Translations under genes and position numbers: made by a program
Origin: Diplonema papillatum
Taxonomy: Eukaryota
Direction of reading: 5' to 3'
DNA: 64,000 nucleotides
Assembly (NCBI GenBank): GCA_030068145.1
Contig: JAPJBO010000372.1
Span: 77,284 to 141,283 of the forward strand
Shown here: piece by piece, positions 56,331 to 58,629 of the stretch
Position numbering within the stretch: the stretch's first letter is position 1
Layout of the letters: the number at the start of each line of letters is the position of its first letter
The notes under the pieces: generated by a model
What the model saw: only the letters and a program-made list of their open reading frames with translations
What the model was told of the DNA's origin: nothing
The model's database searches: none

Positions 56331-56874
56331 CTACTACTACTACTACTACTACTACTACTACTACTACTACTACTACTACTACTACTACTACTACTACTAC
56401 TACTACTACTACTACTACTACTACTACTACTACTACTACTACTACTACTACTACTACTACTACTACTACTACTACTACTACTACTACTACTACTACTACT
56501 ACTACTACTACTACTACTACTACTACTACTACTACTACTACTACTACTACTATACTACTACTACTACTACTACTACTACTACTACTACTACTACTACTAC
56601 TACTACTACTACTACTACTACTACTACTACTACTACTACTACTACTACTACTACTACTACTACTACTACTACTACTACTACTACTACTACTACTACTACT
56701 ACTACTACTACTACTACTACTACTACTACTACTACTACTACTACTACTACTACTACTACTACTACTACTACTACTACTACTACTACTACTACTACTACTA
56801 CTACTACTACTACTACTATACTACTACTACTACTACTACTACTACTACTACTACTACTACTACTACTACTACTA
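56331..56874. repeat. (TAC)n microsatellite, about 180 units, with two single-base interruptions (about 56550 and 56818)
   Basis: Direct observation. ORFs 56285-57019, 56287-56979, 56307-56888 and 56550-56942 are artefacts (poly-Y, poly-T, poly-L, poly-V). Confidence 0.98.
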
Positions 56875-57065
56875 TTGCAGTTTACTGAGGGAACTGGAGC
56901 AAGACGCATGGCTAGACGAGCACGACCACCTCGAATCGACACCAGAAGAATTCGGGGTGGGGCTGGCTTCGACGACTAGTAATATCCCGGTAAATGGTAG
57001 CACTCCTGAACAAGCCTGAACCAACAGGATCAAAGAATGTCAGTCACACCTTCCCGATTCTTTTT

Positions 57066-57230
57066 CCCACCCTCCATCCCCCGCGTGACGTCGTCCCAGC
57101 GGCGATCATAGCTTGCCTCATGGTCGGTGTTCTTCCCCTTCGTTTGTTTGTAAGTATCCGCTTTGGTTTCACCCTTTGTTTTCAGATGGAGTTGCACGAG
57201 CCGACCGGAGGAAGGGGTCAGCACAAGCCC
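57066..57230. repeat. Segment of about 160 bp, conserved with window positions 1-160, lying between the two (TAC)n arrays
   Basis: CCCTCCATCCCCCGCGTGACGTCGTCCC.GCGGCGATCATAGCTTGCCTCATGGTCGGTGTTC..CCCTTCGTTTGTTT is 95% identical over the first roughly 90 bp, then about 70% identical for some 70 bp more. Copy 2 contains GTAAGTATCC...CCCTTTGTTTTCAG|ATGGAG, which looks like a very short intron. Confidence 0.85.
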
Positions 57231-57280
57231 CAGGAAGCCAAGCCAGTGCGAGAGGCCAGAAGACGCCAGCTCCAATTCCT

Positions 57281-58629
57281 ACTACTACTACTACTACTAC
57301 TACTACTACTACTACTACTACTACTACTACTACTACTACTACTACTACTACTACTACTACTACTACTACTACTACTACTACTACTACTACTACTACTACT
57401 ACTACTACTACTACTACTACTACTACTACTACTACTACTACTACTACTACTACTACTACTACTACTACTACTACTACTACTACTACTACTACTACTACTA
57501 CTACTACTACTACTACTACTACTACTACTACTACTACTACTACTACTACTACTACTACTACTACTACTACTACTACTACTACTACTACTACTACTACTAC
57601 TACTACTACTACTACTACTACTACTACTACTACTACTACTACTACTACTACTACTACTACTACTACTACTACTACTACTACTACTACTACTACTACTACT
57701 ACTACTACTACTACTACTACTACTACTACTACTACTACTACTACTACTACTACTATACTACTACTACTACTACTACTACTACTACTACTACTACTACTAC
57801 TACTACTACTACTACTACTACTACTACTACTACTACTACTACTACTACTACTACTACTACTACTACTACTACTACTACTACTACTACTACTACTACTACT
57901 ACTACTACTACTACTACTACTACTACTACTACTACTACTACTACTACTACTACTACTACTACTACTACTACTACTACTACTACTACTACTACTACTACTA
58001 CTACTACTACTACTACTACTACTACTACTACTACTACTACTACTACTACTACTACTACTACTACTACTACTACTACTACTACTACTACTACTACTACTAC
58101 TACTACTACTACTACTACTACTACTACTACTACTACTACTACTACTACTACTACTACTACTACTACTACTACTACTACTACTACTACTACTACTACTACT
58201 ACTACTACTACTACTACTACTACTACTACTACTACTACTACTACTACTACTACTACTACTACTACTACTACTACTACTACTACTACTACTACTACTACTA
58301 CTACTACTACTACTACTACTACTACTACTACTACTACTACTACTACTACTACTACTACTACTACTACTACTACTACTACTACTACTACTACTACTACTAC
58401 TACTACTACTACTACTACTACTACTACTACTACTACTACTACTACTACTACTACTACTACTACTACTACTACTACTACTACTACTACTACTACTACTACT
58501 ACTACTACTACTACTACTACTACTACTACTACTACTACTACTACTACTACTACTACTACTACTACTACTACTACTACTACTACTACTACTACTACTACTA
58601 CTACTACTACTACTACTACTACTACTACT
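57281..58629. repeat. (TAC)n microsatellite, about 450 units, one interruption at about 57752
   Basis: Direct observation. ORFs 56994-58637, 57113-58819, 57163-58662 and 57753-58703 are artefacts. Confidence 0.98.

Follow-up and report, generated by a model that had tools for sequence, protein, structure and literature searches.

A near-pure (TAC)n array in Diplonema papillatum, possibly interrupted by a short non-coding dispersed repeat

The window analyzed here, a 64-kb stretch of Diplonema papillatum DNA, contains two blocks of nearly pure TAC trinucleotide separated by a few hundred base pairs of unique sequence. The reading that we prefer, to which we give about an even chance, is that these blocks are the two parts of one near-pure (TAC)n array of ~630 units, interrupted by a 405-bp low-copy, non-coding dispersed repeat that is possibly MITE-like. 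The original prediction of two huge TAC arrays of about 180 and 450 units was borne out at the location given, with 181.7 and 450.3 units, respectively; the segment between them had been put at 160 bp, and its real size is 405 bp (56875-57279). The right-hand part of this piece (copy B) recurs at the window start (copy A), where it lies next to a different tandem array. The features concerned are as follows.

56330-56874, + strand: (TAC)n array 1, 545 bp, 181.7 units
56875-57279, + strand: inter-array piece (copy B), 405 bp, unique and non-coding; candidate inserted copy of a dispersed repeat
57070-57279, + strand: homologous part of copy B, 210 nt, matching window positions 1-414
57279-58629, + strand: (TAC)n array 2, 1,351 bp, 450.3 units
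1-414, + strand: copy A, ending ...CAACAATTCC; it starts at window position 1 and is thus cut by the window edge
412-974, + strand: minisatellite with units of 21 to 23 bp, TCCCGAGGGG(GG)CCTTGTTGAAG, ~26 copies; it begins inside the last 3 nt of copy A
973-1002, no strand assigned: perfect 12-bp stem with a 6-nt loop, AACAAACCCCAG cttt ac CTGGGGTTTGTT, read from the sequence directly after the minisatellite

Array 1 consists of perfect runs of 73, 88, and 18 units with 2-nt TA units between them (near 56551 and 56817), and array 2 consists of runs of 158 and 291 units split by one TA unit near 57754. Only three imperfect units are found in the 1,896 bp of both arrays, and every one of them is TA, the same deletion of C. 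The + strand of the arrays has no G at all, and among the other microsatellites of the 64-kb window, the largest reaches 10 units. Both arrays are made of head-to-tail units within the 1- to 6-bp range, repeated far beyond what composition would give, and are microsatellites in this sense; their lengths are those of the long-read assembly. We infer that slippage during replication, or unequal exchange, enlarged them and that they are selectively neutral.

Self-BLASTN of the window aligned 57070-57195 with 1-126 (84.5% over 129 nt, E = 1e-31) and 57245-57279 with 379-414 (86%). In a gap-tolerant global alignment, the 210 nt of copy B showed 87% identity to copy A over 208 aligned columns, with three additional blocks in copy A, and the local alignment score of the two copies reached z = 47 versus shuffles. 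The similarity is unevenly spread; over the first ~90 nt, identity is ~98% (2 mismatches and 4 gap columns), falling to ~80% with large indels in the remainder. The earlier figure of 95% over ~90 bp to window positions 1 to 90 was therefore a fair one, and the recurrence at the window start also holds, but its extent is longer than claimed, 210 nt against positions 1 to 414, and runs up to the array boundary.

The homology of the two copies stops at the same ...CAATTCC, and in each of them a tandem array begins 1 to 3 nt away; however, the arrays differ, copy B leading into (TAC)n and copy A into the minisatellite of 21- to 23-bp units. The flanks that follow these arrays resemble each other at chance level (z < 1.2), and the same is true of the left half of the 405-bp piece compared with copy A (z < 1.2) and of the flank before array 1 compared with the element (z = -0.3). 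The copies are thus non-adjacent, with a common end of homology and unrelated downstream flanks, which are the marks of a dispersed repeat, here seen in two copies with the left end of copy A outside the window. A 30-mer of the conserved core had zero matches in JGI metagenome contigs.

According to the mechanism that we propose, the (TAC)n array would have existed first, enlarged by slippage or unequal exchange, and the 405-bp piece would have inserted into it. The shared ...CAATTCC boundary would then be the terminus of a mobile element, and copy A would be a second, older, and more degraded copy whose right end abuts a different tandem array. The TA variant common to both arrays would indicate one array, through which the variant had spread by unequal exchange. 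The 405-bp piece is bordered left and right by TAC in one and the same strand orientation, and the units continue in phase across it (...TAC TA / C TAC), for which the chance is 1 in 3. Insertion into an existing array is favored because the unit, strand, and phase are the same on both sides, because the TA variant is shared, and because the upstream flank is not element-like. For copy B, the choice between insertion and seeding of the array by the tail of the element would, judged from the two copies in the window, lean to insertion.

Both copies might touch an array because the element prefers tandem repeats, because it accumulates in “safe” repeat DNA, or because arrays form at its end. Several points count against insertion of a dispersed element. 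The putative family has two members in the window, one of them cut by the window edge, and its left terminus would be defined by copy B; the in-phase junction carries a prior of 1 in 3, and the inverted pair described below is 11 nt long; moreover, a contrast of ~98% in the first ~90 nt versus ~80% in the rest is not what a neutrally decaying transposon copy predicts. Because copy A abuts an unrelated minisatellite, any targeting by the element cannot be sequence specific. One could go further and take the shared segment for the terminus of a family of diplonemid mobile elements that enter tandem arrays whatever their sequence, or give rise to arrays at their end, and that recognize repeat structure and not a motif; both copies would be typical of this family, an idea that we hold to be improbable.

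The possible MITE-like character of the piece is suggested by a short inverted repeat near its ends.

56890-56900, + strand: left arm, GGAACTGGAGC, 11 nt, lying 15 nt inward from the end of array 1
57269-57279, - strand: right arm, GCTCCAATTCC on the + strand, ending precisely at the start of array 2

The arms are complementary at 10 of 11 positions and are the sole exact matches to GGAACTGGAGC and GCTCCAATTCC in the window. The score of this pair was reached by 15 of 2,000 shuffles within 30 nt of each end, and the interior of the piece holds other inverted pairs of comparable quality. The pair may hint at a MITE-like element, but the hint is weak because, although the right arm is terminal, the left arm lies 15 nt inside the piece and no target-site duplication is visible. 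No short direct repeat that could be a target-site duplication surrounds 56875/57279 or 56890/57279, where duplication of a TAC unit would be invisible. A search of 56860-57290 gave no tRNA-, 5S-, or 7SL-like match at E ≤ 1 and no Rfam family beyond chance, and folding of the 405-bp piece is no more stable than that of its shuffled versions for either of the two strands (z = -0.3 and +0.7).

The homologous part of copy B also carries a series of sequences that resemble gene signals.

57098-57099, + strand: AG after a pyrimidine tract
57120, + strand: ATG
57150, + strand: GTAAGT
57179-57185, + strand: TTTTCAG

The predicted GTAAGT followed by TTTTCAG (ending at 57185) and ATGGAG (57186) is indeed present in the inter-array segment, with GTAAGT at 57150. 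Ten codons lie between the ATG at 57120 and GTAAGT, and the 36-nt interval from GTAAGT to CAG is stop-free and in frame. In copy A, GG replaces the AG of 57098-57099, and CAA replaces the CAG acceptor. An intron of 36 nt would be far under the intron sizes reported for D. papillatum. Six-frame translations of both copies, searched as a joined query against 5.8 billion proteins, returned zero matches even at E ≤ 10. Given the lack of a protein match, the AG-to-GG and CAG-to-CAA replacements, the short intron, and the frameshifts caused by TA units, the idea that the segment belongs to a repeated gene family, as a small exon or intron, did not hold up. A long intron with GTAAGT at 57150 as its donor and the AG at 58967-58968 as its acceptor, which would take in array 2, was rejected as well; it would be out of frame with the ATG at 58977.

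Since none of TAC, ACT, and CTA is a stop codon, all three forward frames necessarily remain open across the arrays; the frame changes at every TA unit, and the open reading frames (ORFs) read Thr, then Leu, and then Tyr. The only one of them to start with ATG (56994-58637) encodes 547 residues and crosses the arrays; its frame reads CTA and, past the TA unit, Tyr. In D. papillatum codon use, CTA is the rarest Leu codon (0.03), and TAC is preferred for Tyr (0.85). A protein-coding repeat, with the arrays specifying poly-Thr, poly-Leu, or poly-Tyr tracts in a surface or secreted protein that has MVGVLPLRLF as its first exon, could draw on the length of this ATG-initiated ORF and on the preferred Tyr codon, but the ORFs are open merely by virtue of stop-free units, and the ATG frame uses the rarest Leu codon before it passes to Tyr. 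The exact sequences of the array-crossing ORFs are absent from a collection of 15 billion proteins, their non-repeat parts gave no homologue in the six-frame search, and we consider a coding role extremely improbable. We conclude that the locus formed by the arrays and the shared segment is non-coding, because its TA units shift the frame, no protein homologue was found, and no gene model matches it.

Among explanations other than insertion, seeding by a tail deserves some weight, although we regard it as unlikely. On this view, a retroelement or SINE-like element would have the shared segment as its 3' end, and its tail, or DNA repair at its end, would nucleate expanding arrays, (TAC)450 in one copy and the 21- to 23-mer in the other. 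That microsatellites can originate from retroelement tails is documented (PMC3812793), and the array begins 1 to 3 nt from the same element position in both copies. In addition, the first minisatellite unit overlaps the last TCC of the element, and AATTCC of the element resembles AAGTCC of the unit, as in arrays born by slippage between short direct repeats; tail seeding fits copy A somewhat better than copy B. However, tails made of a 3-mer and a 21- to 23-mer are unrelated, whereas tail motifs are normally family specific. Array 1 lies upstream of the element, with TAC in the same strand and phase and nothing element-like before it (z = -0.3), and the six-frame search yielded no reverse transcriptase (RT) or endonuclease (EN) remnant, poly(A) is absent, and there is no tRNA-, 5S-, or 7SL-like head. 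The original prediction of a dispersed element whose tail seeds arrays thus survives in its first half, since the end of the element coincides with an array at the same nucleotide in copies that are 56 kb apart and have unrelated flanks; copy B, with TAC in phase on both sides, argues against the seeding itself.

The signals in copy B raise a further explanation, which we find quite unlikely, namely duplication of the 5' region of a gene, the segment being a module of intergenic or 5'-UTR/first-exon type with a spliced-leader AG, an ATG, 10 codons, and GTAAGT, the arrays being independent and the boundary fragile. Copy B has the textbook order of pyrimidine tract, AG, ATG, and GTAAGT, a 3-nt indel keeps the frame in the short ORF, and such a module would suit the step from ~98% in the first ~90 nt to ~80% further on. 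Dozens of D. papillatum genes have repeated 5' regions, with 5'-UTR/first-exon modules duplicated beside genes (PMC10161547), and each copy precedes a high-GC3 ORF on the + strand, that of DIPPA_33973 (starting at 1817) for copy A and ORF 58977-60035 (GC3 of 0.86) for copy B. On the other hand, the N terminus of DIPPA_33973 is unrelated, copy A has GG for AG and CAA for CAG, and the splice from 57150 to 58967-58968 is out of frame with the ATG at 58977; the translated segment occurs in no protein, although a 10-codon exon would be undetectable by protein search. Finally, the lengths of the arrays, their TA units, or the order of array, spacer, and array might stem from consensus error or misassembly of long reads. 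In this genome, homopolymer tracts of >600 bp are artefacts of single PacBio reads, and repeats limited the assembly (PMC10161547); moreover, 1.3 kb of pure TAC is beyond the reach of short-read polishing. Nevertheless, the arrays have defined unique flanks, the unique 405-bp interior is matched by an independent homologue at a distance of 56 kb, the three imperfections are one and the same loss of C and not mixed errors, and read support is stated for D. papillatum tandem arrays of up to tens of kb (PMC10161547). An assembly artefact is, in our view, improbable, and insertion into a pre-existing array remains the reading that we prefer.

The surroundings of the locus identify it as nuclear D. 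papillatum DNA, rich in transposons, without a matching protein model and situated between genes on the same strand.

1817-7288, + strand: ORF identical, residue for residue, to DIPPA_33973 (KAJ9455581.1) of Diplonema papillatum, on a 208,222-bp contig
About 52.96-56.09 kb: hAT-like transposon with ORF 53242-55731 on the - strand, just upstream of the arrays

A D. papillatum sequence in EukProt falls in the same 90% cluster as DIPPA_33973, and ORF 12459-15845 has 99% identity to a D. papillatum USP16-like protein. The window is part of contig tig00005826, whose 21 genes all lie on a single strand (“21P”) (PMC10161547); the name of this contig is absent from the part of the NUMT table of the genome paper that was covered (PMC10161547). 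Neither strings from the segment nor (TAC)5 occur in the supplements of that paper. The 280-Mb genome is 52% repeats (PMC10161547, Valach et al. 2023), which include ~10,000 mostly unclassified families of dispersed repeats (median length, 236 bp), 100,426 tandem arrays with units of 2 to 50 bp (the longest being 29.9 kb), and thousands of scattered 28S fragments (PMC10161547). Given these statistics, large simple arrays and short dispersed repeats are the norm in D. papillatum.

The transposase encoded by ORF 53242-55731 is hAT-like but divergent. Its representative homologues number 35, and a profile built from the ORF and 14 homologues matches the Hermes transposase (6dww, 2bw3) with E = 1.4e-8; Pfam Dimer_Tnp_hAT gives E = 0.13 for the ORF alone and reaches the cut-off in homologue P0050. 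The inverted ends of the element share ACACGGAWTGRAAACGAT, with AAACGATCGTTT subterminal motifs on either side, its tips being placed approximately. The transposon table of the genome paper contains MULE, TATE, and Tc5, with hAT not among them (PMC10161547). Fragments of tyrosine-recombinase-like ORFs were also seen in the neighborhood of the arrays. When ORF 58935-60035, the hAT-like ORF, and the recombinase-like ORF were searched as one joined query, the sole protein retrieved was a D. papillatum “adenylate cyclase” model from another contig, in which a 103-residue piece is identical to the hAT-like ORF. Kinship of the 405-bp piece with the hAT-like element was considered and rejected, since the termini and AAACGATCGTTT motifs of the latter are unlike the ends of the piece; a lone ACGATC just past array 2 is at background frequency.

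The TAC arrays and the 405-bp repeat are ordinary repeat biology for D. papillatum and not a gene. As one further association of a transposon-like repeat with a microsatellite in a genome that is half repeats, the locus matters little alone. It does follow that the long array-crossing ORFs are artefacts of a stop-free unit and should stay unannotated, and the locus offers a good test case for the accuracy of the D. papillatum assembly. If it were true that the repeat family always ends in an array, an element so tied to tandem repeats would be unusual, and it would come from a little-studied lineage of eukaryotes.

Transposons that reside inside microsatellites are well documented, including the Micron MITEs, the MINE-1 Helitrons, and the LINEs Waldo, Mino, Kibi, and Dong (review, PMC3812793). 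Copy B resembles them in being short, in having the same microsatellite on both sides in orientation and phase, and in having a terminus that abuts the repeat, and it is possibly like a MITE in that its ends may be short inverted repeats. Unlike these microsatellite-targeting transposons, all copies of which lie in one motif, copy B lies in (TAC)n and copy A at a minisatellite of 21- to 23-bp units; they differ further in that no RT/EN, transposase remnant, or target-site duplication was found here, with two copies in the window. To our knowledge, no microsatellite-targeting transposon family has been described for euglenozoans. The poly(A) tails of Alu and L1 give rise to A-rich microsatellites (PMC3812793), and as in these, an array starts at the 3' boundary of a repeated element. 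However, the arrays here are not A-rich, differ between copies, and in one case lie upstream of the element, and hallmarks of a retroelement were not found; the locus does not fit a retroelement with a tail, since the tails differ by copy, the six frames give no protein, and a pol III-type head is missing. Another close setting is that of the repeat-bounded gene structures of D. papillatum (PMC10161547), with which the locus shares the genome, the tandem arrays, and the dispersed repeats, although, unlike tandem copies of a gene's own 5' region (PMC10161547), the two copies are separated by 56 kb, have no matching gene, and adjoin different simple arrays. Since it lacks both a single target motif and a tail specific to its family, the locus is classed here as no more than a dispersed repeat found in association with tandem arrays.

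Upstream of the first of the two (TAC)n arrays (array 1) lies a hAT-like DNA transposon, and the features around it and elsewhere in the window are as follows.

Features of the window, by position
11303-11469: 13-bp unit, 12.8 copies, 97%
12459-15845 (+): USP16-like ubiquitin hydrolase ORF, member of a multi-copy family
20706-20953: 59-bp unit, 4.2 copies, 98%
40541-40694 (+): isolated fragment (154 nt) matching eukaryotic 28S rRNA (Rfam LSU, 120 bits)
41763-42735: tandem duplication of ~500 bp, 83.5% identity
49597-49722 and 52872-52952: long palindromes near the recombinase-like ORFs
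52044-52745 (-) and 49872-50270 (-): two ORFs with weak tyrosine-recombinase signals, from domain matches
52960-56090: hAT-like DNA transposon, ~3.1 kb, with transposase ORF 53242-55731 (-)
973-1002: perfect 12-bp stem-loop, directly after the minisatellite of 21- to 23-bp units
58646-58656: palindrome CTTTCCGGAAG with core TTCCGGAA, 17 nt after the second (TAC)n array (array 2)
58800-58868 (+): degenerate tRNA-like sequence whose box B is perfect (GGTTCGAATCC)
58977-60035 (+): ORF just downstream of array 2 with strong frame-specific GC3

The transposase ORF of the hAT-like element is intact (829 aa), and in a profile search its family profile matched the Hermes transposase (E = 1.4e-8). The element has inverted ends (ACACGGAWTGRAAACGAT) and subterminal motifs (AAACGATCGTTT). 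A 103-aa stretch of the element recurs at 100% identity within an "adenylate cyclase" gene model from a different contig, which indicates that at least two copies exist. The transposon table in the D. papillatum genome paper contains MULE, TATE, and Tc5 only; hAT is absent from it (PMC10161547). The domain matches of the two recombinase-like ORFs are weak (Phage_int_SAM_4, E = 0.005; Phage_integrase, E = 0.03), and these ORFs may represent pieces of TATE- or Crypton-like elements.

At 45 nt upstream of array 1, a short (ACT)4 run precedes TGTGCAGTCTA; TGTGCAGTCTA resembles ATTGCAGTTTA, which follows array 1, at 8 of 11 positions (56274-56297 compared with 56869-56889; p ~1e-3), a likeness that may be a trace of an earlier duplication, within this locus, of a TAC run plus its flank. 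Palindromes closely follow both the minisatellite and array 2, and this may be either a coincidence or a fork-stalling feature.

The tRNA-like sequence, ~170 bp downstream of array 2, reaches 15.7 bits with the Rfam tRNA model, whose gathering score is 29, and no tRNA was called there by ARAGORN; it may represent a pseudo-tRNA or the head of a SINE. The neighboring ORF is preceded by a pyrimidine tract and an AG (58967-58968), and its GC3 is 0.86, compared with 0.49 in another frame. A search of the protein collection returned nothing similar to it, and the ORF may therefore be an unannotated or multi-exon gene.

The 90%-identity cluster of the USP16-like ORF comprises 10 gene models on different contigs, 7 of which are full length (1,465 to 1,499 aa), and pieces of the ORF also occur inside gene models that are unrelated to it (Rrp12, a Mg/H exchanger); given these many copies and pieces, the behavior of the ORF is that of a segment within a large dispersed repeat. 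The 28S fragment, which covers Rfam LSU model positions 2825 to 2984, agrees with the thousands of 28S pieces reported to be scattered in the D. papillatum genome (PMC10161547).
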